A DNA stretch of 64,000 nt from Ancylonema sp. (Eukaryota): contig JBFLGF010000024.1 in the NCBI GenBank assembly GCA_050230475.1, positions 1 through 64,000 of the forward strand, in the 5' to 3' direction. The notes under the pieces were generated by a model. That model was not told where the DNA came from. It ran no database searches and saw only the letters and a program-made list of their open reading frames with translations. The position numbers and the translations under genes are program-made. Positions 14,938 through 53,547 of this stretch are shown one piece after another. Position 1 is the first letter of the stretch. Every line of letters starts with the position of its first letter.

Positions 14938-15057
14938 CAGTAAAACCTGTCTTAATTTATATTGTCTTAATTAATAACCTGTCTTAATTGATAAAAAATC
15001 TCCGGTCCCGACCTAGGGCGAGTATAATTATTAATAAACCTCTCAAACGTGATAACA
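14938..15057 (+). mobile_element. Truncated pogo/Tc1-like MITE end
   Basis: Starts CAGTAAAACCTGTCTTAATT with repeated TGTCTTAATT. Similar to 53729-53898. Confidence 0.45.
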
Positions 15058-15058
15058 T

Positions 15059-28866: not shown

Positions 28867-31030
28867 GTGCTGTGGGAAAAGAATGATGTTAGCAAACCTT
28901 GTCGACTGGACATGGTCCACGATCGCCTTGGGATGCAGTATGCCTCTTTGGAGTCAAGCTTCTACCGTTCAAATACAAATAAATTATTGGCTTAGAGACA
29001 ATAAAGGGCTGCTGTCATCAGCCCAACTTATCTCTGAGAGTTAGGTCCGGAGTGCCTTGTGGTAGTTTCTCCATGGTTTAAGTGCATGGTAAAAACAGAA
29101 ACTCCTTGTGACCAAGGAATCAAGGATACTTAAAGTTATGGAGGGGGTTTAAAATTAGGTTTGGTATACTTTTGTTGATGGGATAGTTGTGCACTTGGAA
29201 TTTAAATTAGTGTATCTCCAAGATTGCTGAGTGTGTCGTTAAGTAGCCATATGGCTACTTAACAGCTTCAGGAGGTATATGCTAGCTGCACAGTCTACAA
29301 GTTGACTAGGTTTTTCTTGAGTGATGCATATCGAATTATTTTGGAGTATATCCCGAGCAATGAATGTCTCATCTGTCTTGAGAGGAATGTTTCATATCTG
29401 GTTATTACTAGGCTTCATTCACCATATTACACGGCATCAATAATACATGTACCAAATCACGATGCTCTTGGTTGACTTCATTTTGAACATATTCAATCTC
29501 ACATGACGGTTGTAAGTTTATGTAAGTAGGCTTTGTTTTTTGGGCATGCCAAATGGTGGAGATTTTGTAAGGGAGATTTCATATCTCAGTCGTGGAGAAA
29601 AAACAATCGTTGAGGTTTGTGGTGATATTGAAGGACTAGGACCTTTTATCATGTTTATGAGCACTTTTTCATGTGTGCAGCGTCATTCATGTCAGAAATA
29701 GACGGATTGTTGGTACATTTTTGCACGCCATGTACTTTGTCAAAACACCAACACTTGAGTGGAATGCCACCTGACACACTTCTATCAGATTAGAGCACAC
29801 GGGAGAAAGCACTGCAAAAGCCTTCTTAAATCCGCTACTCGAGAACGTCAACACCTAGAGGGTAATCAACGTAATACTTAGCGAAGGCGATTGACTTGAA
29901 AACTTAACACATTACATTATCTTCGCCCCCCACGTACTGAATTTTTGTTCTTGCAACTGCATACATGTATGAAGCCTCTCGGCTAGAGTAGGACTAGCTA
30001 GTGGCCTTGTGCACACCATAGCGGTTCCCAACCCCCCCGAACCCCAATTCGGGTGGCCGCCGGATAGGAGGTACGTAGATCGGATCGAGCCCATTGGTGG
30101 GTCCCGGACGGCCTTGGGACCGCACCCAATATTGTATCGGGCATTTATCGTCCCGGACACGTCCGAAGATTCCCTCTACGGTCCAATGACCAACTACGAT
30201 CAAGCGTGAACAATAAACAAATATTGTCGTGTTCCGAAGTCCAACACAAGTGGACATGGCTAGGTAGAGTGTGTTGAAGTCCGCTTCCTATGTCCTTATG
30301 TAAGTCCCATGTCGATAGAGTTAACGCGTCCATGCACGTAAGTGTCCAATTGCAGTGTTTGATAGACGATAGCCGCCCTCATTTGGAATTAAGGAGCCAT
30401 TGCATTCCTCCTAAAACATAAATAACAAATAAATACATTACGAATTTTGGAAGGATACATCGTTTGGGCACCTCTGATTTGAAAACAATTTAAACAGGCG
30501 AAACATGTCGTTATGTCAAGGGGAGTCGTAACATTGACGGTCGTTATATTTTAGGGAAGACTTCAAAGTAAACCCTTTATATAGTCATTTTTATAGCCAT
30601 TCCTTTGCCATACCTTAGAAAGCTGCAAACAAGGTTGCACGACTTGCCAAACGTGTCCGACATGTTGCTCAGTGGGCGATTTCGACTCGAAAAGACCACA
30701 CTCGCATTTGCTCGGGGAACTCTGGCCACTCATATAACGGGATTCTCGCGTCATCGAAGTTGATTTGGCTCGGGGTCGCCCAATTCGCCGAACGAGTCCA
30801 ACTCGGGCCGAGTGCGCCTCGACTAAGATTCTTATGACGTGCGGTTTGGAGTCGGCCGAACGGAATGATGTTCTCAATACTTTGTCACGATAGTTCTCGA
30901 ATGTTCTCAGAATGATGCATGTGGTAATGCTCGTGGTGGTGTAGCGATGATGTCGACTGAGTTGGTATCGATGATGTTCGTAGGTGGTAGAAGTGTCTGT
31001 GATGGACTTGGTGGTCCGGCTGTTCTCACT

Positions 31031-32425
31031 TCATCGATATCAACTCAGTCGACATCATCGCTACACCACCACGAGCATTGCCACATGCATCATTCTGAGA
31101 ACATTCGAGAACTATCGTGACAAAGTATTGAGAACATCATTCCGTTCGGCCGACTCCAAACCGCACGTCAGCTGTCATGACGCTAGAGATCGCTAAGGCG
31201 AAAACCCCTCTAGATTGATCATAAACTCCTCTAGATTAATACTCCTCTATAACGAGAGTATTCGATATAACGGTTTTTACAATTAGTACTTTACAAGAAA
31301 AATAGTGAAGTACGAAATTTGTACGACTCGAGAATAACGCGTGGCGTATTTTCCGAAGTCTAGAATCCAGCAGTTCAACAAATAGCTACGTGTCGATTTT
31401 TGTTAAAATCACAAGTCACTTTCGACTTGTCGATAATCCCGGCGATTAAATATAGTTGTAGAACTAGAGTAATATCTAGCGCCGTTTCATCGTAGCGCCG
31501 GGATTAATTGTAATGTTATAGAAGCCAGCCTGTCGTTACCTTCGATAGCTTAACTCAGGTTAATTATGTCGGTTAGCACCGCGCAACAACTTTGGAGATA
31601 AAAGTCAATTGTACTTTCACATATGCCAGCTTCCGCTGTCAGATTGCGCTGCTAAGATATCCCTTCCAACCATCTCCGGTGTTATCTGAATCCTTGCAAT
31701 TGTGTGAATATTGCATCCTTTCACTTACGCGACTTCGCAACGTGCTCGTCTATCGTCTCAGCCTGACATCCGTTAGCCAGACGGTAAGTTATGCAAATCA
31801 TTCTTTGCAATCTGCGTGTGTGTATTAGCTGGCAGATCTGAAAGTACAATTGACTTTTATCTCAAAATTTGTTGTGCGGTGCTAACCGGCATAGTTAACT
31901 AGAGTTAAGCTATCGAAGGTAACGACAGGCTGGCTTCTATAACATTACAATTAATCTCGGCGCTACGATGAAACGGTGCGAGATATTACTCTAGTTCTAC
32001 GACTGGATTTAATCGCCGGGATTATCGACAAGTCGAAATTGACTTGTGATTTTTAAAAAAATCGACACGTAGCTATTTGTTGAACTGCTGGATTCTAGAC
32101 TTCGGAAAATACGCCACGCGTTATTTTCGAGTCGTACAAATTTCGTACTTCACTATTTTTCTTGTAAAGTACTAATTGTAAAAACTGTTATATCGAATAC
32201 TCTCGTTATAGAGGAGTATTAATCTAGAGGAGTTTCTGATCAATCCAGAGGGGTTTCCGCCTTAGCGATCTCTAGCGTCATGACAACTCACGTGCGTTTT
32301 GGAGTCGGCCGAGCGGAATGATGTTCTCAATACTTTGTCACGATAGTTCTCGAATGTTCTCAGAATAATGCATGTGGTAATGCTCGTGGTGGTGTAGCGA
32401 TGATGTCGGCTGAGTTGATATGGAT
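31031..32425. repeat. Large inverted repeat of partial A + gc + 5' half of B (arms ~31031-31630 and ~31827-32425)
   Basis: Plus-strand CCGCACGTCA-GC-TGTCATGACGCTAGAG at 31161-31188 mirrors the minus-strand copy at ~32270-32297. The arms match over ~600 bp. Confidence 0.88.
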
Positions 32426-34069
32426 AATGTTCGTAGGTGGTAGAAGGGTCTGTGGTGGACTTGGTGGTCCGGCTGCTCTCACTCCCCCCCCCCACCGATG
32501 GAACGCTTGTGAAGGAGCTGGGAAACAGTAGCAGACGAGTTGGTGTAAGGACATGAGAAAAGTACGCCGTGGTTGAGGGGTAGTACTGTGAGTTGAGGGT
32601 AAGACTGACGTGTTGTTTGGAGACGGCCGCCTAAAATGATAGTCTTCATACTTTGTCACCTTTCTTGAACGGAAGTTCTCTCTTTTGATGTCCTCATAAC
32701 TTCTTCTTCTCTAAGTTCTGAATGTTGATCATTTCATATAGTCACAATCTCGTATCGATGAATGTTGGTAATATCTCATAAAGTCACAATGTGGTATTGT
32801 GTTGCTCTCACTAAGTAGTATTGCAGATAGAGTCTCTGCTGAGATACCAATATTATATATATCACACGTCTCAGCGGTCTGGTGAAATTCACTACTTAAC
32901 GCTGAGGGCAAGCTAACAAATGGTTTATAGTACAAAAGTCTGTGAAAATACTATAAAGCAAACAAGATAGTCTAGTGCAGACTATCAAGGTTAGCAGCCG
33001 GCAGACTATCAAGGTTAGCAGCCGTAAGAGTTACTTTGCGCGTCGATAAAAGATGCTAGTTCAGAAAGAGCGTCAGCAGACAAATGTAAACAACAAATGT
33101 TGGCTCGGAGCGAGCGACAACAAACGCACACACACAAATGAAATTGCCGGTTCGGAGCGAACGCATGCAACTCGACAGATGCTTTTCACACACACACACG
33201 CTTGCTGGCTCAGAGAGAGCGTCATCGAATCGATGTAAGAAATTGTAGTCGATATCACAGCTGGCTCAGAAATAGCGTCTGCAACAAATTCAGATGAATC
33301 ACGAATACACACACACACAGATTGCAAAGAATGATTTGCAAACTTACTGCCTGGCTGACAGATGTCACGTTGAGACGAAAGACGAGCACGTTGCGAAGTC
33401 GCGTAAGCGAAGGGATGCAATACTCACAGATTTGCAAGGATTCAGATAACACATAATATTTTTTGGAATAGATTTCTTAACAGCGCAATCTGACAACGGA
33501 AGCTGGCAGATCTGAAAGTACAAATTGTCTTTTATCACAAAGTTGTTGCACGGTGCTAACCGGCAGAGTTAACTAGAGTTAAATTGTCGAAGATAGCGAG
33601 AGACTCGCTTCTAGAACATTACAATTAATCTCGGCGCTCCGATGAAAATGGCGCGAGATATCACTCTAGTTCTACGGCTGGATTTAATCGCCGAGATTAT
33701 TGACAAGTCGAAAGGGACTTGTGATTTTAACAAAATCGACACGCAGCTATTTGTTGAAGACTGCTGGATTCTAGACTTCGGAAAATACGCCACGCGTTAT
33801 TTTCTCGAGTCGTACAAATTTCGTACTTCACTATTTTTTCTCTAGCAAAGTACTAATTCTAGAAAATCGTTATATTAGCAAAGTATTAATCGTCATACTT
33901 TGTCACCTTTCTTGAATTGAAGTTCTCTCTTTTGATGTCCTCATAACTTCTTCTTCTCTAAGTTTTGAATGTTGATCATCTCATATAGTCACAATCTCGT
34001 ATCGATAAATGTTGGTAATATCTCATAAAGTCACAATGTGGTATTGTGTTGCTCACACTCCCCCCCCCC

Positions 34070-35170
34070 AGTTGCGAAATGGTAGTGTAAGAACTGGGTA
34101 TCACGAGCACCGTTCGCCTCTGTGGTCAGGACATAACCATGCATCTTCGGGTATTGTTTTGAGCCGGGGTGTGAGACAATAGATGTGGTAGCCATCGTTA
34201 GAGTCGTCACACAAAATGAGATGTTTCTCATCGTTGCGTGAACCGCATTGTCTGCAAAATGTAGGGTCAGAGTTGTTGAAGAGACTTGTGTCAATCTTAT
34301 AATCTTTGATGGAGAGAGTGCAGGGTGAAATGTTTTTCATTTGTTCCCAGATGCGGCGTCCATCTTTGCCCTGTAACTGCACATTTCCAGAGGGTCGGAT
34401 TTGTCTAATCCGGAGGATTTGTGGATGTGTTTTGATGTCAAGTGTGCCTTTGGTTTGGCGTTTCACATATTGATGGGCGAGGTCGTGCCCATGCACCACT
34501 GTGTACCCGGAAGTATTGATGCCTGTCTCGTTGTCATGTAATGGCAAGGTTGCGCGTTGCGAGAGGCATGACTTCCTCCAAAAGTTTACTACGTTCCAGA
34601 ATGAATTTTGGTAATTCTTTGAGTGCCTCAAGTAAGGGGTCATGTTCAGCTGCCTGTATTTGTGCCTGGAAGATAGGGTGTCCTCCATACAGCAAATAGT
34701 ATGGTGAATACCCGGTAGAGGCCTGTTTTGTCATGCGGTACCCCATGGCGACATAAGGTAGGTAAATGTCCCAATCCGTGCCCGTGCGATGTTATTTTAG
34801 GAGGATTTTCTTTAAAGATAGTTTCATCGTTTGAACCATGCGTTCTGCTAACCCATCAGATTGTTCTCGGGCTGCAGTACGATGTGTAATTCGAAGTCCG
34901 ACAAGTAAGTCAGTGAATGCCCCTTCAAATTCCGCGCCTTGGTCGGTGATGATTTCACCAGGGGCTCCAAAACGAGACAGGACATGAGTGAGTAAATCAT
35001 GTTAGGTTGGTTTGGAAGATTTGTCAGGTAAAGCGATAAGTTCGTTCCATTTGGTGAAATGTTCAATGAAGATCATCACGTATTGGTTTTTACATGTACT
35101 TTCTGGCATAGGTCCAGCGAAATCAACTCCCTATCGATAGAAGAGTCCCCGAATTGGTAATGGTTGTAGT
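34070..35170 (-). pseudogene. Integrase core + PHD finger (disrupted)
   Basis: [65 protein letters not shown]. Confidence 0.88.
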
Positions 35171-35419
35171 TGGCAAACGTCCATCAACAAAGTTTGTTTT
35201 AACATCTTCTGGTTGTGGTGTACCTTGGTGAAAACTTAGAAAGTATGATCGTGCACTTAGACCCGTAGGTGAAGTATGCATGTAGTAGCAAGGTGTTTTC
35301 TCCCCTAATGTTTCAATCTCATGGTTGTCAGTGGCTGTCTCTGGTGATGGACAGCGACTGCACCCGTCGGCATTGGAGTTTGCAACACCATGGAGATGAA
35401 TCACCTCAAATTCATACTC

Positions 35420-36720
35420 CTAAAGTAAGAGTGCCCAACGCGCAAGTTTGCCGGTGAGTTTGGTGGTTGTCATGATCCATTTGAGGGGTGCATGATCGGT
35501 AATGAGGGTGAATGGTTTACCAAACAAAAACTGACGAAAATGTTGCACCGCCCAAATGACAGCAAGACACTCTCTGTGGAAGCTACTGTAGTTCCGTTCC
35601 GCATTGTTACAACTGCGACTAGCAAATGCGACTGCATATTCGGTACCATCATCATCTGTTTGACTCAACACAGCACCTAAACCATGTGCACTCCAGTCGG
35701 TTGCTAACAGGTATGGTTTATTTGTATCTGGTCGGCGGAGTACAAGTTCTAAACATAGTGCCTGCTTAAGTTCGATAAAGGCTGTCTCTTGAGTCTCGTC
35801 CCAGTGCCATTTGACATCCCCTTTTAGAAGCCCGTTGAGTTGGGAAGCAATCGTGGAGAAGTGTGGAACGAACTTGCGGTAATACGAAAACAACCCTAGA
35901 GCAGCACGAAGTTGATGAATATCCTTAGGTGTCGGCATATCCTTAATAGCTCTGGTTTTCTACTCTTGTGGTGCAATACCTTTCCCAGATATCTTATGGC
36001 CTAAAAAATCCATTTCATCCGCAAAGAATAAGCACTTACGTGGATGACATTTCAACTTGAATTGCCGAAGGCGATGAAAGACTTGTCGAAGGTGTTGAAG
36101 GTGGTCCTCGAAAGTATTGCTCCAGTTGCTGATGTCATCAATGTAGCATCGCGAGTTGCGAAGTCTTGCCAAAATCCGATTCATGGTACGTTGGAAGAAT
36201 AGTGGTGCATTCTTGAGTCCATATGGTACGATATTCCATTCATAAAGTTGACGGTCAGCTCCCCAAAATGCAGTTTTGTATTCGTCCGTTTCAGAGATAG
36301 GGATCTGGTGGTATCCTTGTCTTAAATCCAATTTGGTAATTTTTTTCGCATCTTTCATGTCTTGAAAGATGTCCTCAAATCTTGGAAGCTGATACTTGTT
36401 GGGCGTGGTTGTTGATAGGTCGATAATCACCACACTGGCGAAAGTCTGTTAGTTGTCCATTCTCGTCCTTCTTTCGTACTACGACGGTTACCGAGGCGTA
36501 ATTATTACTGTCACTTGTGCGAATCATGCCTACATCTAGGAGTTTTTGATAGTTTTCGCGAACAAAACTCCATTCGGTGTCGGAAATACGATGGGAGTTT
36601 TGAAAGATTGGTTGAGTTGTTTGCAACGGAATTTCCACCGGAGTATTGTTGGATGGAAGTAGCTCTTCTAGAGAAAATGCAAAGACATCGCGGTTTTCCT
36701 CCAAAAGGTCAATAACTTGG
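35420..36720 (-). pseudogene. Ty3/Gypsy reverse transcriptase + RNase H (disrupted)
   Basis: FRQCGDYRPIN, KLDLRQGYHQI, VPYGLKNAP, CYIDDI, FLGHKIS, ALGLFSYYRKFV, LATDWS, ITDHAPL. Confidence 0.93.
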
Positions 36721-37049
36721 AGTTTTTGTTCCTCCGTAAGATTGTTGCCATTTTTCCATGTAATGGGTTTCACCTCAGTTTTTGGTAATGAATCTGGGTT
36801 GGATGGAATCATGTTGTCATCGGTGACATTTGTTGATTGGTAATCGGTTTTACTCAATAGTGCTTGAGTGATAGGAATTGCATCCCGAGCAAGTTGACGT
36901 TGCTCAGTTGAAGTATGATGCTGGTGATTCCTATTGTTATAAAACTCATTGGTTGCCGAATCGTAATGAGTTGTGTGGTATAATGGAGCAATAGAGTAGT
37001 TGCCCCCCCCCCTGTCCTTGGTTGGCAAGGTGGGATGTGTACCCTATGC

Positions 37050-38070
37050 AAGGCTGTAAGATGGGAGTGCATGGATAGCCATGAGAATGCCTCCCAACCA
37101 TTTAGCCATGTTGCGATCCATTGTGCGTCCCAGCATTGCTTTCCGAGTATTCTCCGAAATGCTTGGTGCACATGTATCTCCATTGTCAAAACCCATGAGT
37201 CGCTCACGTTTTCCCAAACATTCGCTTCCTCCCAGTCATGTCTTTCCGTGTTGTAATGCATTCTAGGGCCTGGTTGATTGTACCTTTGAAACTTAACTTG
37301 GTAACTGCATGGGTACGAGACAAGTGTCGGTAGTGCACGACGTAGTTCGCCAGTTTTGTTAACTGGAGTGAATGGTGGTTCATCATCTTTAAGTACCTTG
37401 TTAGGTCGATGATGTGTCAAGAATGGTTGACAACGGTGGTAATTTCGGGGTGTCAGGAATAGCCAGTTCCAATACATCTCGTGATATCCAGTTTGTCCAG
37501 ATGCATCGAACATGGTGGGCTGTGCTACCGAAACTGCATGCGTCGGCAACTGCTAGAAAGCCCAAAAATGACTTGATGAGTGTAGTTGTATCTAGAATTT
37601 CCTTGACCAGATCTCCAAATGGATATGTGTTTTCCAAAATAAATACTGGTGGGTATTTTTGGACTCTAATGAGATGGTTGATGGCTCGAATAAGGTCAAA
37701 AAAATATGGAAATCGTCGATCATAGTAGCCTTTGCCTTGTCTAGATTTGCTGACCATCTGACATTCCCATCCCGCGAAGATGAAGTAAATAGGTCCTCGT
37801 TGTAAGATCAGTTCATCCAGATCGTCGTTTGATATTTTGGAAATATCATGAGAAAGTCGAGTGTCGAAACCTTTAATTGCAGTGGTTGGCAATCGTCCTA
37901 GGTATCGAACTTGAAGTTTGGGTAATGTTGCACGAGTGATGTCACGTGCGTCTTGGTCAATGTCACTGTGGGTATATGTACCAATGTTGTTTCCAGCTTC
38001 AAGGTGCATGATAGCGCCAACTGCAACTCATGCCACCAAAAGGTTCCAAATGTGTAAACCATATTGCAGC
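37050..38070 (-). pseudogene. C5 cytosine DNA methyltransferase domain within Gypsy pol (frameshifted)
   Basis: Motifs in canonical order: I HIWNL(F)GGM (across a 1-nt slip), II SDID, III HDISKI, IV FAGWECQ, VI FILENT, VII ADACSFG, VIII HHVRCIWTN, IX RERLMGF, X LGRTMD. Confidence 0.82.
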
Positions 38071-38639
38071 GCCTTAGGTTGTAACCGTGCTGTATAAGAT
38101 GGGTCAATTGGTACAGCATCGCGAATCGGTATACCTTTCCATGTGTTCCATTGTGGTAATGACTGGTTTTGTATTTTGTCGATGGCCTTGCGCAAATACT
38201 GTGCGCTGTTGATACGCAAAGTTGTAAGTTTGTTGACTGCATGGTGCTCATTTACTTGTGCCATTGTTATGGCTACCGCATTAAGTTGTGGTCGATGCGC
38301 TTGACGAATGTCTGTATGTTTGGTTGTAGCAAGGTAAACCATGGTATTGGTTTCCCATTCCTGCATCTTGAGGTTGGTACTCATTGTCGATGGGTCCATC
38401 TGGAAAATGTTGTGGTTCGTGGTACACACCTTCTTCCACGATACGAAACTCAAAATCTGTCAAAATGTCGGCTTCTTCTGTTGAATGTAACAAATCCTCG
38501 TGCGGAATTTGCATGAACGTGTCACCAGAAGTGTAAATAACACCTTCATCCATGTATTGACAATGCACCGATGCCGCGTGTGTCAAGGTGTATTTGAATG
38601 GAATTGAGGCACGGTGTGTACCCTATTTCTACCACTCGA

Positions 38640-39850
38640 CTCGGTAATGAAAGTGTTGACTCCATGGATTTGTAATACCTCCTATTGGTCCTAGGAAAGT
38701 ACTGCCCAACAAAACATCGTATTTGTCGGAAGGTGTCAAATGAAGTTTGGCGTTAACCAAAGTTTGGTTTTTACCATGTCCAATGGTGATGGTATATGCT
38801 TTCTCGGTTGTGCCTAAAGATTGTTGGTATTTGCCATCTGAAGTTACGTATTCTTCTTCAAGATCAAGGTCTTGTGGTGTGAGCTTGAGTTGTTTGGCAA
38901 ATTAGGTACCGATTGTAACATTCTCCGCACCTGAATCAAATATTGGTAGTGAAGGTGTTTCTCCACCAATAGTGAGTATGGATTGACTGTTGTCAGCGGT
39001 TGGTATATGCCAGTTGGTTGTCAATCTGGCATTGCAAGGAATCACCGGTGGTTTGGTGTTTTGTGGTCCCATCACAAAGAGTGCCATTGGTGGTTGCGGC
39101 ATCTCTGCTTGTCGAGGACAATCATGCGGTGGTGGTATGTCACCCTGAGGTGAGTCAAGTAACAAATTCCGTCGTCGTGGACAGTTTGTCATTGTATGTC
39201 CTGTTTGTCCACAGAAATAACATCGTAATTCTTTTTAAATGACATCGTATGGTTCTTCAAATTCAGGTATGTTTGGTGCCTGATGTGGTGCAGACTCGAG
39301 TGGTGTCGAGGTACATGAAGGTGAAAGGTCTGGGTAGTTATATGGAATACCCCAGGTTATGTTCAACCTTCGTGACTATTATAGTCGTTCGAAGCTTTGT
39401 CATGAGCTTTTATAGCACCCGTTCAAGTTGTTCATCAGAAATGTGAACAGATCCTGCAGAAATGTCCAACTGAGGTGCCATAACTGTGTAAGCTAGTGGA
39501 TCAACTTCTTCAATCTTTGGCTGCGCGTATCGTGTTAAAGCCAATGTAGCTTTCCATACCTCCTCTGCTTGAAGCAATTGAATGGTGAGATGGCGAGGGA
39601 TGTGCTCCTGCCCCTCCTGCTTCCTGTATGTTTGCAACATTTGGACGTATGCCAATGTTTGTTCTCGCATATGAGGTGGTAATAGGTGTACCATTTGGTT
39701 TTGTTCCTCAATCTGACTCTGAATGAGTCCTAGTTTGTAAAATCGAAAATCTTGTCCCAGATCTGTTGTTATGGAAAACATAGATTTCTCTGATGTTAAT
39801 TTGTTCAACATGTATTCAATTTTTTGATGCTCTTTCGACCCAATGTCCAT
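38640..39850 (-). pseudogene. ORF1 (unassigned 146 aa) + CCHC knuckle + aspartic protease of the inner element
   Basis: RCYFCGQTGHTMTNCP at ~39225-39180, PIFDSGAENVTIG, YDVLLGS. Confidence 0.72.
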
Positions 39851-40507
39851 GATTGTAAACGTCTATCATTGAATTGTATATGAAAAGTGTATTTCGTCAA
39901 TAAAGTAGAAGTCAAGAAAGACAAAAGATGTTCAAGAAAAAAAATTCTGGTCCCAATGTTTGTTCCAAACTTTTAGTTATCGAAATCAAGGTCTTCCGCG
40001 GTCGGATTGAAGTAGTATTGCAGATTGAGTCTCTGCTAAGATATCAATATTATATCTATCACACGTCTCAGCGGTCTGGTGAAATTCACTACTTAACGCT
40101 GAGAGCACGCTAGCAAATAGTTTCTAGTACAAAAGTGTGTGAAAATATTGTAAAGCAAACAAGATAGTCTAGTGCAGACTATCAAGGTTAACAACCGTAA
40201 GAGTTACTTTCGGTGCGAAAGCAAAGTATCGACGGCGCGTCGATAGAAGATGATGGCTCAGAAAGAGCGTCAGCGGACAGATGTAAACAACAAATGCTGG
40301 CTTGGAGCGAGCGACGGCAAACACACACACACAAATGAAATTGCCGGTTCGGAGCGAACGAAGGCAAATCGACAGATGCTTTTCACACACACACACGTTT
40401 GCTGGCTAAGAGAGAGCGTCAGCGAATCGATGTAAGAAATTAAAGTCGATATCACAGCTGGCTCACAAAGAGCGTCAGCAACAGATTCAGATGAATCAGA
40501 TTATACA

Positions 40508-43500
40508 TTTTAGGGATGTTACGTGATCGGGGTGCGAGGCAGTGTGATTCTTTCCGTACAAGGAACTTACGTCTCTCAGAAGTGTTCAATGACTAAGTGT
40601 TGAGTTGGAAGAATAATCTTGAATGGTCGGCATCGTGTAGGTATACCACGATGCCTCGTCCACAACGTGTATCTACAAAGCGTGCCGACGGTCGTGTCTG
40701 CGAACCGTCGGCCTATCATAACTCAACAACAGTCAGATCCTGTCAACGGCACACGCCGGACAGGCTGACAAAACATAACGTCTAGATTCGGAACCATCTA
40801 GACCGCACGTGCTACAAACGGCACAATCGAAACGTCATATTCGGGTGCCCGGACATAAGTCCGGCCCCTCATTATAAGCACACCCTAGGAACCCTACCGG
40901 TTACACTAACCGGCAGTCCGGACTAGCACGCTAGCAAACATGGCTATCCGATATAATTCCTACACCCCCCCTCGGATGCCATGCCAAGATTGGCATTAAG
41001 TCAGCACCAAAGGACCACCCTCACAACCGCTAAGTCATGGCAAGACCAGTGCATAGCCCATGGAATAGTAGGGTCTTCTCTAGCATATCAATGTGCTAGA
41101 GGCATTTATCAAAAATCACAGCCGATCAAGACGATCGGAAGACAATCGATCGGAAGACGATCGGAAGCCGTTCGGAAGCCGATCGGAACTCCAGAAGACG
41201 ATCGCTCCAGATCCTTAGTCGTTTTTCGGGCCGGAGCCTTGAACATACAAACAAATACCACAAGTTAGGGGGCAATACAAAATGACAAAGTCAATCTTCT
41301 GTAGTTTTGAATAACTTGAAAATATGCAAAACTTCACAACTTTCTCAGAACTTCACCATTTTCTTATTCATAACTTTCTCAATACTTCACCAAATCAAAC
41401 GATATTTTGACACAACATTTTATGAATGGCAACACACCAGAATTCATGAACAACTGACAACTTTAGATGCAAGCAGATCTGCAACTTTTCAGGTGTCCTC
41501 GAGTGTTTTCAGGGCAGAAAAAGGAGTAGGGGACTTATCTGGATAGACGAGCGTTAAGAGCCCTCCACAAGTGCATTCTGCAAGAAGAATAACAGAACAT
41601 ACACCCCCTGCCAAACACAGCATGGCAGCCGAAAATCCCCGAGAACCTATGTGCACCCCCATTTCAGTTAACTCTCCCAAAACCTAGAGACTTTCCGTGT
41701 CTGTCAAGTAAGACCTGTGGAAGAGCCTTAGTGAACATATCGGCTGGTTGATTGGCCCCTGCCAGATACATATACTTCAGCCTACCAGTTCTGTGGCACT
41801 CTCTCACCCAGTGGTATACCACATTGAAGTGCTTCTTGGTGGCCTTCTGGCGCTGGACTGGGTTCTGGATCATTGATGAGAGTGCAGCAGTTGAGTCGTC
41901 ACTGTAAACTACTGTAATTTCATTAGGGAGTTTGAGCTCATGCAGGAGCGACTTCAGGTAAAAGCATTCCTTAAACACACTACAGGCAGCAATATACTCA
42001 GCCTCTGCTATACTCTGTGCGACTGTAGACTGTTTTTGTGACTTCCAGCTTAAAGCAGTTCCCCCAACAGTAGTGACCCATCCTCTGACCGACTTCCCAG
42101 TCATACTGCAGTGTTCCAACTAGCATCACAGTACCCCCTTATCTCTTAACTTCCTCTGCCTCACGTAGCATATTCCGTGATCCACTGTACCCTTTAAATA
42201 TCTGAACAGTTGGTGTAAGGATTTGATGTGAGCAGTCCCAGGATTCCCCATGTGTTTTGCCAGTACCCCCAGTGCAGCGCAATATCCGGTCTGGTGTGTT
42301 TCATTGCATAAATGAGTGACCCAATTTTTCCCCGGAATTCAGTTATCTGTTCAGGTGTAGGGGGAGTTAGAGGTTCATCGTCTTGGTGAAATGTCAGTCC
42401 AGGTGGTAAGGGTAGTTTTGTAGGATTACAGTTTGCCATGCCAAAACGTTCCAGAACCTGTTTTATGAACCCTCCCTGATGCAACGTCAGCACCCCCTGT
42501 TGTCTGTCCCTTTTCACTTCCACCCCCAGGATTATGGGTCAGGGCCCCAAGATCCTTCATTTTGAATTTCCCAGAAGTTCCTGTTTGAATGCCTTAATGA
42601 CCATGGTGTTAGGACCAACTATCACGTGATCATCTACGTGTATTCCCACTATGATTCGTGACTATCCTGTTCCCCTGGCGTATATGCATGTGTCCATAAC
42701 ACACTGTTTGAACCCTATACTGAGCATGAAGGTTGTGAACATTTCACCCCAGACCTTGCTACTGTTTCAGTCCGTACAGTGCCCCCCTCATTCTCAGAAC
42801 CTTTCCCTCAGCCCCTCCCTCAATCTCCTTTCCATGTATACTTCCTCTGTCTACTTCTTCCGTCAGTCTTCCGTGCAAGAAAGCAGTGACCACATCCATC
42901 TGTTCAATTTCCCAACCCTCCTGATTCCGCAATAGCTAGTAGAAGAGAGATAGAGGTACTATCTACTACTACAGGTGCGAATATTTCATTATAGTCAACT
43001 CCTTCTTGTTGTAGAAAACCTTGGGGGGCGACCAGTCCGACTTTATATCTTTCGTTCAAGGGTTCCCGTGGGTGTGTATTTTGTTTTGAATACATTTTTG
43101 CACCCCACAGCCCTTTTACCTCGTGGAAGTTCACACACCTCGAAGGTGTTGAATTCCCCCAAGCTCTTCAGCTCCTCCTGGATAGCAGCTAACCACTGGT
43201 CCCAGTCTGGCCTCGTCATGGCCTGGTTCAGCGTCGGAGGGTCGGAGGAGTCAGCAGACGTGGCAATCAATCCAGGGTCAGAGGGGCCGTTGAAGCCCTG
43301 TGAAGAAGCATGTCCGCCTCCCACTCCTCGTCCTGAATGGCTGCTGCCAGCGCCTGGTCGTCGAACTCCTCCCCATCGTTTCAGAGGACATCCCCAAAGT
43401 GGGCGAAGTTTGCCCTCCCTTCTCCCCATCACCCTCTCAGCTATGCTCACAACATTTACCCCTCCTTGCCCCTCCCCTTCACCCCCTCCTTGAACCTCCT

Positions 43501-46500
43501 CCTCCTCGCCTGCCCCTCCTGCGTTGTTGATCCCTGACTGGCTGTCAGACAGCTCAACCAAGATAGGGACCTCAGCAGCTGGTGGTGGCGGAAGAATCTG
43601 TAATAATGGGATCTGGGCTCCTGGGTCGTTGTGTGCTGCTGCTGCTGCTGCTGGTACTGGTGCTGGAGCTGCTGCTGGAGCTGCTGCTGCTTCTGCTTCT
43701 GCTGCTGGCGTTGCAGCGTTTACTGCTGCTTGTCCTGATACCCCTCCAGCCTTAGGCTCATCATCGGGGAGCTGGAGAAAGTGTCCATCTGCTGTCGCCT
43801 CGACCTGGGGAGCTCTCCCCCCCATGAGTCTCGGGTACCCCGGCACTTCCTCGAAGAAACGGACGTCTCGCACCATCACGCCGGCTCTGAGCGGGTCGAA
43901 GATGTTGTACCCAGCCTGATCTGCTGCCAGCCCCAATATATACCCCAAAAGCAGTCTTGGCAGCATACTTGTCCCCTTGTTTATTTTTATCATGCCCAAC
44001 TAGCAAATATTGAACCAGACAGCCCCGAATGTGTGACTTCTGTCCATTTTTATCTTTCGTCCAGTCCACTCCTCAATAGGTATCCCCCCTGTCAATGAAC
44101 TAGTGGGGGTACTGTTCCTTAACCAGTTTGCGTGCATCAGTGCAACATCCCAATATGATTTAGGCAATTTCTACAACATCAGCAAACATCTCATCTTTTC
44201 CATCAATGTTCTGTTCAACCTTTCACACATTCCATTCTGTTGAGGGCTGTGAGCAGTCAGTTCATGTCTGATGCCTTTATCCTCACAATAGCCTCTCCAC
44301 TCTTTACTTGTGTATTCACCCCCCCCATCTGTCCGGATAGACTTCAACGCCAGTCCTGATTCAACTTCAAGTTTCTGTACAGTGATGCGCGTTTGACTGT
44401 GAGCATCGCTCTTGTGCCTAAGAAGAGATACTGTTGATAGTCTAGTGTTGACCTCTATCCCTGTCTGTGCGTAGTCAAACCCTCCGTGCATTGATTTAAC
44501 ACCAAAAGGACCTATCAGATCTAGATGCAACCTCCCCATTTTCGGCATAGTGGCCACATCCTCGCTAGCAATAGCATGCCCCTTCTGTCCCATTTTCCCC
44601 ATACAACAGATCTACAATTCCTGACCTCAGTCAATTCCTCCTGATTCAGTCTCGGTATACACCACGTCTGGCCATGTCTGACATGGCTGGTATACCAGGG
44701 TGACCCAGTTTGCCATGCCAGAGCATGCGATGGACAATTAGCTTGCAGACCAGAAGAACCCGGCATGATGATAGATGCATGCAGCAATGACAGACCATTC
44801 CTCTGCCTGCTGACATCAGCCCATTTCAGTCCATTCTTAGTCAGTTTGGGGCCATGTGGGTCTGGGCAAAGCTCAGCCCACCTCTCTGGACGAGGCAGTC
44901 GGTGGACACCAGGGTCGCAGCGAATGTAGGGACGTGCAGAGCACGAGAGGGACGACGAAAAGAGGAGTCGTCGTTCTTCACTTTCACGTGCACGAAGCCT
45001 GTCCCCTCGACCTTGTGAAGCGTGCCATCAGCCGTGTGGATGAAAGAATACTGCATTGGGACGTTGGTGTCGTACTCGACGAAGTGGTCTCGGTTTACGA
45101 AGACGTGATCGATCGAGCCTGAATCAAGCCACAGATGCGAACAATCAGTTATAACTGCCATCGCAATCCGTGCGTCAGATGAGAATGCTGCATAAGCTAA
45201 GGATTTAGAGGCATCGAAAGGTGTGTCTGGTCTTGCAGCAAGTCTAGCCTGAGAGCTTGATTACGGAGATTTCGAATCAGGTGCAGACAATGCCAGATCA
45301 GATTTACGCTTTAAACATTCTGCCAATGTGTGTCCAAGCTGCTTATCACAGTATCTGGCACTTTGGTTTCGGACTGCCAACTTACCTGGCCAGCCGATCT
45401 TCCACCTCCACCTTGCCGTTGCTGGCCGCATTGCGACAGCCTGTGGCCGGTCTGGTTGCAGCCATGGCACCTCATTGGCGGACGCACGGGGCAATCCGAC
45501 TTCAAGTGGCCATATTGGTTGCAGCCGTAGCACTGAGTTCTCGTCAGGTCGCGACTTCCGGGAACGCCGATCCCACCTGGTCGACTTGGGCCAGCTCCGG
45601 AGCTGCCCGAGTACCCTCCCCTTCCTACGAAATCGGCCTGCTGCCCTCCCGGCAGCGCCCCTCTCTTCCGGTCGTTGCAGACCTCCCGTCGATCGCCAGC
45701 TGACAGAGTGTTGACGGCCTGAGGGATCGTGAAGAGTGATGGTGCAGAAACTGCCCAGGACATCACGCTCTCCACTCGTGCGCTGTAGCGAGTGTTCAAG
45801 GAATTCAGGAAGTTAATCGTCTGCTTTGCCGGCACTGGCTCCCCCAGATGCCCCAACCGCCGATCGTGCAGCTCCTGAAGTCGCTTGACGTAATCGCTCA
45901 GCTCCTCCGCCTCTCCCATGATAATTGCCGTGAGCTCAGCTTCAGCGTTGGCAATTTCGATGGCTCCCTGAATGTCGTAGAAAGACTTCAGGGCCTCCCC
46001 CATCTCTGCAGCAGTCGTGCAGTTCCTCACATGCGTCAGCTCCCCCGTCTGGAGGTGTTTGACGATGTAGGCCATCGCAGCGATATTCTTCTTCGACCAG
46101 ACCTCTCGAAGGAGAGTCTGTCGACCGATGAGCGTGCCGACCGTTCTAGCGACGTCCGCAGCATCCAGCGTATCGAGCTCATCCTGCGTGACTGGTGGAG
46201 TGTGTGGTAGAAACACGGCAGGCTCTTCTTGCCTCGGCGATTTTCCCTAATCCATAACTATGTCGTGCAGCTCCTTGTCTGCCAGACCAAACTTGATCAT
46301 AAATGCCCACCCTTTGTAGTCTGCTCTTGTGAAGACCGGAATGTATGATTTTTCCGTCATGTTAGTCAACAGCTAAAATTCTTGGTGCTCAGCTCCCAGC
46401 TGCTTTCTTGAGCGTGTTTCGTGGCTACTCACACATCAGTCACTGGCAGCGCAATCGAAGGATTACGTGCAGTACTTAATAACCTCTACCTCAGAGTGCC

Positions 46501-47042
46501 TTTAGCAGCGAATCGCGTGGAATGCCTGTAGTTGTTGACACAACGTCTTTAACTAGACCGCGTGTGGGCCCATAACCTTTTAGGGATGTTACGTGATTGG
46601 TGTGCGAGGCAGTGTGATTCTTTCCGTACAAGGGAACTTACGTCTCTCAGAAATGATCAATGACAAAGTGTTGAGTTGGAAGAATAATCTTGAATGGTCG
46701 GCATCGTGTAGGTATACCACGATGCCTCGTCCACAACCTGAATCTACAAAGCGCCGACGGTCGTGTCTGCGAACCGTCGGCCTATCATAACTCAACAACA
46801 GTCAGATCCTGTCAACGGCACACGCCGGACAGTCTGACAAAACATAACGTCTAGATTCCGGAACCATCTAGACCGCACGTGCTACAAACGGCACAATCGA
46901 AACGTCATATATTCGGGGGTGCCCGGACATAAGTCCGGCCCCCCTCAATTTATAAGCACATCCTAGGAACACTACCGGTTACACTAACCGGCAGTCCGGA
47001 CTAGCACGCTAGCAAACATGGCTATCCGATATAATTCCAACA
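40508..47042 (-). mobile_element. Full-length (frameshifted) Ty1/Copia element inserted in the 5' B block; LTRs 47042-46578 and 40964-40508, PBS 46577-46565, PPT 40973-40965, TSD ATACA
   Basis: Order gag(CCHC)-PR(WLDSGS)-INT(LHLDLIGP, IRTDGGGEY, QQNGMCERLNRTL)-RT(GVDYNEIFAPV)-RH(SWKSQKQ, ADMFTKAL). ATACA at 40503-40507 and 47043-47047. Confidence 0.95.
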
Positions 47043-48494
47043 ATACACACGCACAAATTGCAAAGAATGATTTGCAAACTTACCGTCTGGGTGCCGGATG
47101 TCAGGCTGAGACGAAAAACGAGAATGTTGCGAAGTCGCGTAAGCGAAGGGATGCAATATTCACACAATTGCAAGGATTCAGATAACACATAAGATTTTTT
47201 GGAAGGGATTTCTTAATAGCGCAATCTGACAGCGGAAGCTGGCAGATCTGAAAGTACAAATTGTATTTTTATCACAAAGTTGTTGCACGGTGCTAACCGG
47301 CAGAGTCAACTAGAGTTAAACTGTCGAAGATGGCGACAGGCTGGCTTCTAGAACATTCCAATTAATCTCGGCGCTCCGATGAAAATGGCGCGAGATATTA
47401 CTCTAGTTATACGGCTGGATTTAATCGCCGGGATTATCGACAAGTCGAAAGGGACTTGTGATTTAAACAAAATCGACACGCGACACGCACCTATTTGTTA
47501 AAGACTACTGAATTCTAGACTTCGGAAAATACGCCACGCGTTATTTTCGAGTCGTAAAAATTTCGTACTTCACTATTTTTATTGTAAAGTACTAGTTCTA
47601 GAAAATCGTCATATCGAATACTCTCGTTATAGCAGAGTATTAATCTAGATAGGTTTCTAAACAATCTAGAGGGGTTCCGCCTTAGCGATCTTGAAGACAG
47701 GGTCACTAGTAGTGTGGAACCTTGTATTTAATAATGCGAACAATGCGTCAGGGTGAGGTGCTGATCCCTGATTTTTTTGTAGGAATAGTATAGTCATCCA
47801 AATAGGTATAAATAATATGTTCATAATATGGGGAAGATGGTACTTCCACTAATTTTGGCAAACTATCGGGTAAACTGAGAGTATCCGAGAGTGTGGATAT
47901 TGAGGTAGAACATGGTGATAAAGAGAAATGTAGTTGTATTGGTGGTACTGGAGGTGGTTCAGAAGGTTGGTATTTGAAAGTGTGATTGAGAAAAGCGAAA
48001 TCTTCATGCGGTTTTTTATGGTGTTTCCTCGTGTGGTAAGAGGCAGCATGAGATGTAGTATGAGATTGTCTCCGTGGTTGATTCGATATCCAGGTTATGT
48101 TCGTGGTTGCTGGAATGGTTGTAGACTGATCCCGGTTATTATTTTGTTGACTACTTAAAAGTCGTAGACCAGAATGTCGTGGACGAGGAAGATCAAGTTT
48201 GACCGTTGGGTTTTTAGGCCTTGATTTGGTTTTCGAAACTGGTTTGGTTGAATTTGAGGACCGTGGTCGTGGAACTGGTTTCGATGCCTTGTTAGGTCAT
48301 AAATTGCTTGGTTGATGTTTGACCGCAACCGGTGGGCCCGTATGTCGGGTTTGACTGTTGACTTTGGATTTGGATTTGTTCCGTCCGTGTGGGTTTGCAG
48401 GATTGGTAGAAATGTGATGACCAGAGGATCCAATGTCCCTCCCCCCTAGAGTTGAGGTTGGTAAATACTTTTGTTCCGAGGTGAGGGGTGATCC

Positions 48495-49281: not shown

Positions 49282-49931
49282 TATTTCATCTCAGTGTTCG
49301 ATTGCCGAGTTCGGCACCTACTTTTTGGGTGTTTTTTTTGGGTGAGGGAAGGTTGGATTGGTTGGTAGTCATGTTCCATCTTGAGGTGGGCATCCCGAAG
49401 ATGGGCTTGGCCGTTTCGTTGGATGGTCGTGTAGTGAGCGTCTCCGTAATAGCCACCAATGGGCCCTAGGATTTCATTGCCCAGTAAGTCATCAAATTCC
49501 CTGGATGGTGACATATGCAGTTCCATATAGATGGTGGTTGGGTTGGGTGTGCCCCTGCCAATGGTAATTGTTTTTTTTTCCTTGGTTGATCCGAGGCTGA
49601 TTTTCTGAGCACGAGAAGCAGTGATGTATGGTGTTCCAGGTTTCAACATGTTGGGTGTGATTCCAAGCTTGGATGCCATGATTCTGCCAATCATGGTTTT
49701 GATGGCACCATTGTCTACTACCACCTTGTTTGGTTTCTCATTCATGATTGTTAACACCCCACGGTTGTTGCGAAGGAGTGCAATACCATATTTGGTTTCC
49801 TGAGAAGTAGTGGTGAAATCCTCGCTGGTGGTATATTGGGCTCCAGGTTCTTGCATGGAGTTGACAAGTGCAGCCGCGTTGTCACGTGCCTTCTCTGCGA
49901 TCTGCAGTTGTGCACGCATTAACATGGCCAT
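49282..49931 (-). CDS. Retropepsin-like aspartic protease region of the outer element (ORF 49020-49931)
   Basis: VVVDNGAIKTMIG ... FDDLLGNEILGPIGG, homologous to PIFDSGAENVTIG ... YDVLLGSTFLGPIGG. Confidence 0.65.
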
Positions 49932-50451
49932 ATATCATATCATGAAGAGCTTGTGCCTGCGGTAAGGGCATGGGTGGAGGTGCAAGAATATCATGGAATT
50001 GGTTCATGTTGGTAGTACCAACTTCCAAAATGTTAGGAAAATCAGGTACAAATGAGATTGGCATCTTTGTACTGTATCCCTGTCTGCGACCGTAATCCTC
50101 CCCTTCCCTAGTCCTTTGTTCTAACAATGTTTTTGGATGAGGCTCCGGATATGGAGTGGTTGAACTACTTGGTTCAGGATCAGATTGATAATGAACTGGT
50201 AGAGCGTCAGGCAAAAGTGGTATTTGCGTATCATCCATAGGTGTATCAACAGGTGGAGTGTGATAATCTGTGGTGAATTCAGATGGTGAGAGTGTGTCAG
50301 AGTTGAGAGTGACCACACGAACATGAAATTGAGTCTGTTTCTGAATAGCCGCTTGTTTCTTCTTCTCTTTCGCAGCCACCCGTGGTGAACGTCTGGTGGA
50401 CATTAGTTACTGACAAGGGATGGTATGGTCAATTACCTCAGAGTCCGCTGT

Positions 50452-51930
50452 CTAGTGCGACATGTTTTCGAATTCGCGTTGGCGTGCCAAGTCGTCTACT
50501 TGCATGGCCAGGTAACTTGTTTGCATCTCAGGAGTCTTCCATCCTATTTGTTTGGGTTGAGAATTTGCAGTGGGTGGTGTACTGAGAGTTAGTAAGTTTT
50601 GTGCCTTGGCAAGTTTCTGACATTGGTCTCGGGTGTGGTGTTTTCCTTTGCAATATTCACAAAATGCATTAGCTGTGTATTGCTTTGCATCGAACTGGCG
50701 AGGTCGTGGTTTGAAGGGTTGTCTGTTTTCAGTACCGTACGCACCTCCCTTGAACTGTGATCCTGAGGTTTGGTTGGTTTTGGAAGTTTTATCGGACTGG
50801 TAATCTGATGACTGGAAGTTGTTTTGTGTCCTTGGTGCAGGACAGTCACGCGAAAGGTGTCCGGTCTGATGACATTGGTAGCATTCCATGTTGCTCACCT
50901 GTCTCGGTGTCAATGCGCCTGTTGGTTTAGGAGCAGTGTAAGGAGTAAATGGAGTGTATGTAGGTAGTTTAGGAGATCTAGTGATCACAGCTGCGCGGTT
51001 CTCAGCGTCTTGCTTCATACGTAGTAATTCAGCCTTGTTGGCTTTCTCCATAGTCTCCTTCCGGGTGATAGGAGGATCTGGTGGAGTTTTGTAGTATCTT
51101 TCCTCAGACTCACGAAAATGCCACTTGTCTATATAAGGCTGTAGTGGTAGAGGACTATGTGGTAGATGCCTCCTAGCCAATTGTTCTTTTGTCATGGCTC
51201 TTGCCTCTTGAACAATAGTTGTTGGTTCGTTAAAGCGTGCAAATGTGGTTGCGACGCTGTCATTGTGTCGTGCTGAAAATGTGAGTAACAAATTCTGTAG
51301 CTGAATTGCGAAAACGATTTTTGATGATGGTGATGAACAATTCCAATTCAGTTGGTTCTGCTGCCGATGCTGTGGGTTTGATCAATGCATTTGTCCATCC
51401 AGTCTACCTTGCAGACGATAATATGCGACGTTGGAATTATGTTCACGGTACATATCACGAATATCTTCCGTAGCAGTAGTACCACGGTTGTCGCGTACAA
51501 ACTATTGCCATTCTCTATGAGCTTGTGCCTTCATATACTGACCAACTACAAGTACTCAGTCCCACTCTACATGCCCCATACGCTGTGTGCGGTGTTGGGT
51601 TCGGTCTAACTGTCTCAAATTATCGTGGAACTTGTCTTGTTTGACACCAGTGTCTCGAGTATATGTCGTTAGTGGCGTTGGGTTGGCCATGGTAGTGTCT
51701 GTCCCACCTTTTATCTTGTGTCGATTAATGGATGTTGTTGCAGCGCTTGGTGGCGTTGCAGCGGGAACACTCGTTGATGGTCCAGCCACAGGTGCTGTGG
51801 TATCGACGATGTGGTCCTCTATGTCAATAATCAAAACAAGTTTCATGTTAATGGCGCTTGTAGGTAGGCGTTCCAAAGACTGTTCCGGTTCTGATGTAGA
51901 TCGTGTCAATTTGTTGGGTTCAAATTTCAC
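50452..51930 (-). pseudogene. Gag of the outer element (capsid-like region + two zinc knuckles), frameshifted
   Basis: RHNDSVATTFARF resembles the Gag major homology region. Knuckles CYQCHQTGHLSRDC and CEYCKGKHHTRDQC. Confidence 0.7.
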
Positions 51931-52334
51931 TTATACTCGGGTTGCAGAATCGGTATCGAGACGAGTAGTTGGCAAATGGAATGCAGAGATATCAACAGCC
52001 TGTGGAGCTGAATTGTCAATATCAGTATGAATAATACTATTAAGAGTTGGTGCGACTAGTGATTCGATAGTAACTATATCGATGTCCGGTGATCGCGGAC
52101 AGTTATTATCGACAGCTGGTTCAGCTGACGGATCGACAATTTCAACAGGTTAGTTTCCTCCAGTTTGGTTAACCTCCCTCTACTATCTCGTGACTACCGC
52201 ATGCACTACTCTTGCGAGCACATTGAATACCAGATAGTAGAAGAAAGTTGTCTTAAAAAAAAATTCGAGGTTATTTACCTTTTCCGACATTTAAAAAAAA
52301 AATAAAAAAAAATCAAGGTCTTCCGCGGTTGGAT

Positions 52335-53491
52335 TGAAGTAGTATTGCAAATTGAGTCTCCGCTGATATATCAATATTTTATCTATCACACGTCTCAGCG
52401 GTCTAGTGAAATTCACTACTTAACGCTGAGGGCAAGCTTACAGATGGTTTACAGTATAAAAGGCAGGGAAAATACTATAAAGCAAACAAGATAGTTTGGT
52501 GCAGACTATCAAGGTTAACAACCGTAAGAGTTACCTTCGGTGCGAAAGTAAAGTATGGACGGCGCGTCGATAAAAGATGCTGGCTCAGAAAGAGCATTAG
52601 CAAACAGGTGTAAACAATAGATGCTGGCTCGGAGCGAGCGACAGCAAAACACACACACACACACACACAATTGAAAAGTGCCGGTTCGGAGCGAACGCAG
52701 GCAAATCGACAAATGTTTCACACACACACACACGCTTGCTGGGTCAGAGAGAGCGTCATCGAATCGATGTAAGAAATCAGAGTCGATAGCAAGGCTGGCT
52801 CAGAAAGAGCGTCAGCAACACATTCAGATGAATCACAAACATACACACACAGATTGCAAAGAATGATTTGCATAACTTATCGTCTTGCTGACGGATGTCA
52901 GGTTGAGACGAAAGACGAGCACGTTGCGAAGTCGCGTAAGCGAAGGGATGCAATATTCACACAATTGCAAGGATTCAGATAACACACGAGATGGTTGGAA
53001 GGGATTTCTTAACAGCGCAATCTGACAGCGGAAGCTGGCAGATCTGAAAGTACAATTGACTTTCATCTCAAAAGTTATTGCGCAGTGCTAACGGGCATAG
53101 TTGACTAGAGTTAAGCTATCGAAGATAAGTACAGGCTGGCTTCTAGAACATTACAATTAATCTCGGCGCTACGATGAAACGGCGCGAGATATTACTCTAG
53201 TTCTACGGCTGGATTTAATCGCCGGGATTATTGACAAGTCGAAAGTGACTTGTGATTTTAACAAAAATTGACACGTAGCTATTTGCCGAACTGATGGATT
53301 CTAGACTTCGGAAAACACGCCACGCGTTATTTTCGAGTCGTACAAATTTCGTACTTCACTATTTTTCTTGTAAAGTACTTATTCTGAAAATCGTTATATC
53401 GAATACTCTCGTTATAGAGGAGTATTAATCTAGAGGAGTTTCTAATCAATCTAGAGGGGTTTAGCCTTAGCGATCTCTAGCGTCAATGACA
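52335..53491 (-). repeat. Intact 5' B block (TG...CA, 1157 bp) with no A block upstream
   Basis: Minus strand TGTCATTGACGCTAGAGATCG...CAATACTACTTCA. Homologous to all other B copies. Confidence 0.9.
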
Positions 53492-53547
53492 CTTATGAAG
53501 TCGTATGAAGTTGTTTGATTGTGCCTAGCGCGTGTGTTTTTGGCCGA

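Follow-up and report, generated by a model that had tools for sequence, protein, structure and literature searches.

How does a retrotransposon that encodes a DDE integrase come to carry the split direct repeats known from tyrosine-recombinase elements? This question is raised by a 64,000-nucleotide stretch of the Ancylonema sp. assembly GCA_050230475.1 (contig JBFLGF010000024.1, positions 1–64,000; hereafter, the window). A prediction made from the sequence alone (the original prediction) had proposed a Gypsy family here with the structure B-internal region-polypurine tract (PPT)-A-B-A, bounded by target-site duplications (TSDs). We found decayed transposons nested together in the window, and the B...PPT-A-B-A family of Ty3/Gypsy elements among them is a real feature.

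End structure and protein content of the family

Self-comparison of the window and direct reading of the sequence both showed the order PPT-AG-A-(spacer)-B-AG-A at 4 of 4 3' ends and B alone, with no A, at the two 5' ends, as had been predicted. The 3' ends lie at 17038–18539 (+), 19648–21091 (+), 34057–32606 (−; A/B junction deleted) and 32481–30835 (−; B rearranged via an inverted duplication of A57–B654). The 5' B ends lie at 53491–52337 and at 47694–47043 plus 40502–40010, the latter interrupted by a Copia insertion. The A repeat is 160–205 nt long and B is about 1.15 kb. The two elements with both ends in the window are an outer element and an inner one inserted in it, whose parts include a primer-binding site (PBS), protease (PR), a C5 DNA methyltransferase (DNMT), reverse transcriptase (RT), RNase H (RH) and integrase (INT).

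Outer element:
30835–53491, − strand: whole element, B-PBS-gag-PR-DNMT-like remnant-(inner element)-PPT-A-B (rearranged)-A
53492–53495, − strand: TSD, 5' copy, TAAG
52337–53491, − strand: 5' B, starting with TG and ending ...TACTACTT
53018–53034, − strand: predicted self-primer in the 5' B (B458–474), ~34 nt downstream of a TATA-like motif
52320–52336, − strand: PBS, complementary to B458–474 at 14/17 positions
32482–32493, − strand: PPT (G10) and AG
32288–32481, − strand: A1
31827–32285, − strand: 3' B, positions 1–459, with the A1 junction GA-GT-TG
31033–31826, + strand: inverted duplication of A57–194, CA-GC-TG and B1–654, in place of the remaining 3' B
30835–31030, − strand: AG and A2, with CA end
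30831–30834, − strand: TSD, 3' copy, TAAG; flank covered by a single-copy short-read contig

Inner element:
32606–47694, − strand: whole element, B-PBS-gag-zfCCHC-PR-DNMT-RT-RH-INT-PHD-PPT-A-B-A
47695–47698, − strand: TSD, 5' copy, GTCT (GTCTT counting 47694)
40010–47694, − strand: 5' B (47694–47043 and 40502–40010), start damaged, split by Copia
39993–40009, − strand: PBS, complementary to B at 15/17 positions
37404–38027, − strand: C5 DNMT remnant, Pfam E 4e-4 (below the cut-off)
35345–36448, − strand: RT and RNase H
34477–35172, − strand: DDE integrase core, D2-E spacing 33
34119–34260, − strand: PHD finger at the integrase C-terminus
32606–34069, − strand: 3' end, with PPT 34069–34060, A1 34057–33885, junction deleted, B 33875–32813, AG and A2 32810–32606
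32602–32605, − strand: TSD, 3' copy, GTCT, then T

Both elements had been described as running from TG to CA between TSDs. This held for the outer element, in which TG (53491), CA (30835), PPT and flanking TAAG (CTTA on the + strand) are complete. The inner element has CA, PPT and TSD but no intact TG: its 5' end reads GTCT-T-CAAGATCG, in which about 15 nt at the start of B have been lost or changed, and at its 3' terminus CA (32606) is followed by GTCTT. Two readings of its repeat are possible, 5-bp GTCTT, the length originally given, which holds loosely, or 4-bp GTCT plus the first T of the element; 4 bp fits both elements. For 2 of the 4 elements no TSD could be read, since the copies at 17038 and 19648 have no 5' end in the window. 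Twin direct long terminal repeats (LTRs), the canonical arrangement, are absent; with B at the 5' end and A-B-A at the 3' end, the split direct repeats instead follow the A1-B1-A2-B2 order of PAT and Ngaro.

The repeats of each copy belong together. A1 was 95, 87, 96 and 95% identical to its own A2 in the four window copies, and A repeats of different subfamilies were alike only at their ends. Over 550 columns, 22 diagnostic sites paired each 5' B with the 3' B of its own element, 2 supported crossed pairs and 0 separated 5' from 3' copies; thus, the pairing of 5' B with 3' B is not due to chance.

Repeats abound in this region and a fold-back has rearranged one end, as might be expected had the structure been produced by mis-assembly or by solo LTRs inserted in tandem. 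That explanation is already contradicted, and we consider it scarcely credible, since the same registers recur in four diverged copies and the internal junctions carry no TSD. Contigs from four public short-read runs (three studies) were mapped onto 30300–41500, and the B/A joint, in which the last base of B meets the AG of A (places 40010/32483), was carried by 17, 9, 4 and 2 contigs in the four runs. In L063, a contig from a related element, A (106 nt) is shorter than the 127-nt overlap of its sister contig, yet the junction is present. A single-copy short-read contig runs from the outer 3' flank into A, of which it covers the terminal 30 nt, and the upstream flanks of 41 contigs at a B start were unlike one another (agreement 0.38).

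By its proteins, the family is Ty3/Gypsy. The inner element encodes zf-CCHC, protease, a C5 DNMT remnant, RT, RNase H, integrase core and a C-terminal PHD finger; the order PR-RT-RH-INT and the Ty3-like RT are those of Ty3/Gypsy, and the best solved match of a relative, P0007, was the Ty3-G Gag-Pol (E 1e-93). A PHD finger takes the place of a chromodomain at the integrase C-terminus. The inner element is decayed by stops and frameshifts, and the zinc-finger region of its integrase is deleted, so that the HHCC finger is lost and the D2-E spacing is 33; the copy at 17038 retains both the HHCC finger (H2C2 match) and the D(35)E spacing. RNase H and integrase occur only in these two elements, and RT only in the inner one. 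The DNMT upstream of RT is weak in the window (E 4e-4) and clear in P0007 (1e-11) and in L062 (7e-12), an intact relative; the inner remnant is part of a 670-aa match (32%) to P0007, and the DNMT of P0007 does pass the cut-off. A search with the DNMT fragment returned no match, and an Rfam scan returned 0 families. Integrase, protease, PPT and TSDs with no recombinase had been attributed to the element as a unit, which is correct for the family but not for the outer element: this showed matches to protease, the DNMT region and a zinc knuckle only, with none to RT, RNase H or integrase, and it is therefore non-autonomous.

Tyrosine recombinases gave 0 family matches in the 44 + 127 open reading frame (ORF) fragments of the window (frames of at least 55 aa) and none among the 26 ORFs of L062 (at least 80 aa), so the family is not a member of the DIRS order. 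Its repeat order is nonetheless the A1-coding-B1-A2-B2 of PAT and Ngaro (PMC4157794), and one could imagine replication through a PAT- or Ngaro-like circle whose insertion relies on a tyrosine recombinase that DIRS elements of the host provide in trans. We regard this as very improbable: the elements end in TG...CA, their TSDs are unrelated to the junction sequence, the intact relative has an open DDE integrase and no recombinase ORF, and the closest relative has Ty3 Gag-Pol as its best solved match. These results support the original proposal of an integrase-type Gypsy element with PAT/Ngaro-like split repeats and a non-standard route. The family works in a manner resembling self-primed Gypsy elements and departs from them in lacking twin LTRs. 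One of four 3' flanks in the window (TCGA) fits NCGN, the target preference described for the Physcomitrella non-chromovirus clade Phygy (PMC6317226); our tree included no Phygy reference.

Junctions, palindrome and primer site

The junctions were read in the outer and inner elements, in two further window copies and in two contigs of a relative. The window copies are:

15056–18539, + strand: 5'-truncated copy, RH-INT-PHD-PPT-A1 (17038–17201)-GC-B (17204–18373)-AG-A2 (18376–18539)
18547–21091, + strand: non-autonomous copy, gag-PR remnant-PPT-A1 (19648–19822)-GC-B (19825–20930)-AG-A2 (20933–21091)

The relative was reached through P0134, which is 53% identical to the window element over RT-RH and led to contigs L062 and L063. 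L063 reads PPT-A (106 nt)-GC-B-A-CA followed by 21 nt of non-B flank; its A copies are identical (106/106), and neither its A nor its B repeat significantly matches those of the window. L062 is an intact copy that the assembler collapsed into a circle, and its gag-PR-DNMT and RT-RH-INT-PHD frames are both open. A single in-frame stop lies between these frames (L062 3489–3491), which suggests read-through or a separate pol start.

The A/B junction is CA-GC-TG in 3 of the 4 readable window junctions, the fourth being GA-GT-TG and a fifth deleted. The same CA-GC-TG stands in 2/2 relative contigs and is there part of a longer palindrome, GACAGCTGTC; the 64 kb contain 28 copies of CAGCTG. The B/A junction is equally exact. 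The last bases of the 3' B are ACTT, and the position of this end coincides with the boundary between 5' B and primer site. AG-TG comes next, as it does after the PPT; A2 begins with this PPT-following AG in 3/3 intact window junctions, and the rearranged fourth also retains the AG.

Complementarity between the primer site and part of B extends to 14/17 positions in the outer element, 15/17 in the inner element and 15/17 in the relative. Of 2000 shuffles, 3, 0 and 0, respectively, scored as high, and internal 17-mers scored no higher than 13. The primer sequences themselves are wholly different between the window family and the relative, and in both a TATA-like motif lies ~30–35 nt upstream of the primer stretch. 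Such an arrangement is characteristic of Tf1-type self-priming (PMC4600332). When the predicted 5' RNA was folded freely, 13/13 primer bases of L062 paired with the PBS, against 7–10/17 in the window copies; folding thus supports the primer duplex only in part.

In both families, CA straddles the B/PBS boundary and A begins with TG(A/T)G; these are perhaps relics of ancestral LTR ends. L062 also carries the 7-nt repeat CACTTGA at its B/PBS and PPT/A boundaries (7414–7420, 6947–6953). The DNMT, the PHD finger, the CAGCTG junction and the self-priming site had all gone unremarked in the original prediction.

A candidate route of integration

The domain order, end structure, TSDs, palindrome and exact registers of both junctions are read directly from the DNA. 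From these we consider it rather probable that an ordinary cDNA of the form AB...AB is joined end to end, and we predict that integrase then opens it at CA-GC-TG between A and B. The RNA would start near B458, and its first ~17 nt would anneal to the site that follows B and serve as the minus-strand primer, in the manner of Tf1. This self-primed minus strand would begin at the T before CAATC and the PPT-primed plus strand at AG, and ordinary strand transfers would give a linear cDNA, AG-A-B...A-B-CTT, with A+B as its LTR. The right end of such a molecule (...CTT) would lack the terminal CA that integrase needs, and its left end would be AG-TG. The ends would be joined as CTT/AGTG, either because the host ligates them into a 2-LTR circle or because RT jumps from one end to the other. 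Integrase would then cut both strands of the palindrome, in each case after CA, giving two CA-3' ends with 2-nt overhangs and insertion with a 4-bp TSD; opening at the left CA-GC-TG would yield B-internal-A-B-A. The step we hold least firmly is the use of the left rather than the right A/B junction; the left one is probably favoured by becoming double-stranded first and by lying only 100–200 bp from the joined ends. More speculatively, integrase might nick the left junction, whereupon plus-strand RT would jump to the left end and copy A up to the nick.

HIV-1 integrase in vitro makes symmetric cuts after CA at the palindromic 2-LTR junction (PMC1905944), and the cut proposed here would likewise be symmetric, after CA and within a palindrome. 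In the family itself, A2 follows its own A1 across subfamilies with unrelated A, in support of the proposed route. This last observation bears on a different explanation, in which A-B-A is a fixed block left by one ancient rearrangement and passed on by read-through transcription, with A2 kept A1-like by gene conversion. Local conversion would account for A1/A2 being more alike than B1/B2. We nevertheless find this explanation quite improbable, because A2 equals A1 in each subfamily despite wholly different A, minus-strand priming after B leaves no path for copying A2 from RNA, and the junction registers match the cDNA ends exactly.

Several observations weigh against end joining followed by internal cleavage. 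A plain 2-LTR circle has two equal A/B sites, so that a bias must be added to explain why 5/5 3' ends are A-B-A, with zero B-A-B...A forms (1/32 if unbiased). B1/B2 differ more than A1/A2 (138/1701, 8.1%, versus 17/360, 4.7%; Fisher p = 0.027), a difference not predicted by simultaneous copying. Only two TSDs are available, one beside a damaged end, and the outer repeat reaches 7 nt (TCATAAG) if the terminal CA is included. One window junction is GAGTTG and another has been lost by deletion; the two primer sites of the window share the same two mismatches to B; and the B/A junction of L063 reads CTC/CTTGAG, which does not copy the CACT that follows its PPT, the 5' end of this copy being unseen. 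The loose-end rows examined were 24 of 1847, so AB-ended copies may still exist. Finally, the steps between RNA and integration are ones we infer.

The exclusive B...A-B-A form (5/5) would also be explained if an extra template switch in reverse transcription produced a linear cDNA that already ends in B and A, from which integrase only trims the 2-nt GC with no internal cut. The 7-nt CACTTGA at B/PBS and PPT/A of the relative could guide such a switch. However, the window family has no microhomology of this type, the left end would have to begin at B, the A end has no purine tract for priming, and the fixed internal CA-GC-TG is more easily understood as a joined attachment site. We therefore view this alternative as possible but unlikely.

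The rearranged outer 3' B touches on reverse transcription in another way. Its fold-back (31826–31827, 31033) breaks at B459, at most 2 nt from the predicted RNA start at B458, and the duplicate differs from the forward copy at 23/459 sites, similar to A1/A2. Because of this similar divergence the fold-back is possibly as old as the insertion, and it may record an error of reverse transcription.

To our knowledge, the well-studied integrase-type LTR elements all integrate linear cDNA by its ends. Foamy virus integrase is reportedly able to cleave the 2-LTR circle junction. In retroviruses, such cleavage takes place at the U5-U3 circle junction as a side route and restores a normal provirus (PMC1905944), whereas here the predicted site is within the LTR and its use would be obligatory. 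If the proposal is right, a side reaction of retroviruses is the normal integration pathway of this family, circle-junction integration becomes testable in a natural system that depends on it, and split direct repeats can arise without a recombinase. What is new is that a conserved internal palindrome and an exact end-to-end junction together point to a specific, testable and unusual integration route. The broader proposition is that an old, streptophyte-wide Gypsy lineage has given up integrase attachment sites at the ends of its cDNA in favour of a palindrome in the LTR where they are already joined, and so requires end joining and internal cutting in each cycle and carries DIRS-like repeats without a recombinase; for us, the case for this is evenly balanced.

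Known systems, relatives and neighbouring elements

The original prediction knew of no description of this architecture, but it is already in print, briefly: the Fig. 4c legend of de Mendoza et al. 2018 gives KnitGypsy-Dnmt3 of Klebsormidium nitens Gypsy domains and a DIRS-like repeat structure (PMC5890265). Compared by description, that element resembles the window family in its Gypsy domains, C5 DNMT and A-coding-B-A-B repeats, and differs in that a PHD finger goes unmentioned. The text and three supplements of that paper, as seen in part, give no junctions, TSDs, priming or mechanism, and have 0 mentions of PHD. We found no literature on how such an element integrates in a search whose bounds left subscription journals, Repbase, theses and bioRxiv supplements outside.

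PAT/TOC1/Kangaroo and Ngaro/VIPER elements carry split direct repeats in the same order as the window family (PMC4157794). Unlike these, the window family has a DDE integrase, protease, PPT, TG...CA ends and TSDs and no recombinase, and its methyltransferase is of the cytosine type, as opposed to the adenine type of tyrosine-recombinase retrotransposons. Tf1, Tj1 and Tcn1 share with it a primer site that pairs with the 5' repeat downstream of a TATA-like motif and has no tRNA-type TGG start (PMC4600332, PMC6317226); these have ordinary twin LTRs and a chromodomain, in contrast to split repeats, PHD and DNMT. Gypsy-7a_cRei of Chlamydomonas is, like the window family, a Gypsy element with a PHD finger, and its legend cites 'LTR subparts', but the PHD is placed before INT rather than at the integrase C-terminus (PMC9940879). 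REM1, which we know from citation only, is a further Gypsy element with a PHD finger. LTR finders require twin LTRs (PMC6317226) and would therefore miss or mis-cut this lineage, which bears a PHD chromatin reader in addition to a DNA methyltransferase.

Named relatives by RT were found in Calypogeia, Marchantia, Coleochaete and Closterium, and by themselves point to a non-vascular streptophyte as the probable host; Klebsormidium was absent among the named matches, the minority of all matches. In a quick RT tree built from 71 of the 129 rows, one 50-row group (Shimodaira–Hasegawa-like approximate likelihood-ratio test support 98), which contains every named streptophyte row, included the window element and P0134 in different sub-branches. 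The B...A-B-A architecture, shown in two lineages only, may thus be old. The B-start motif gave 0 matches in viral contigs and 61 in metagenome contigs, of which 0/61 were window-like beyond the motif. No relatives were obtained with P0001 in genome contigs or P0006 in viral contigs, and 400 further cyanobacterial genomes gave no match. An alignment scan of viral contigs returned 66 loci at identities of up to 45%; self-comparison of four of these (L064–L067) showed assembly-overlap repeats only. G001, the source of L062, L063 and L134–L141, is filed as cyanobacterial and holds several eukaryote-type retrotransposon contigs, which are probably contamination.

Summed short-read contig depth over the coding part of the family was several hundred times that of the unique flank, which is a rough sign of abundance and not a copy number. 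Depth on B (32918–33665) was several times that on coding regions (34788–38153), a sign that solo B-A units or non-autonomous copies may be numerous.

The insertion that splits the inner 5' B lies outside the split-repeat family:

40508–47042, − strand: nested Ty1/Copia element with a 5-bp TSD, TGTAT

Its LTRs differ at 12/458 sites (97% alike), and it is younger than its host element. Its primer site is GGTTATGGGCCCA, which we take to be of the half-tRNA-Met type. Users of such primers include Osser, Bryco and Gymco-II (PMC6317226). A second Copia relative (21463–25777) contains a partial inverted duplication (21614–22604 versus 24881–23892, 85%). An inverted pair at 11879–14149 and 26612–28877, ~70% alike, appears host-like and has weak matches to glycosyl hydrolase family 26 and EF-hand.

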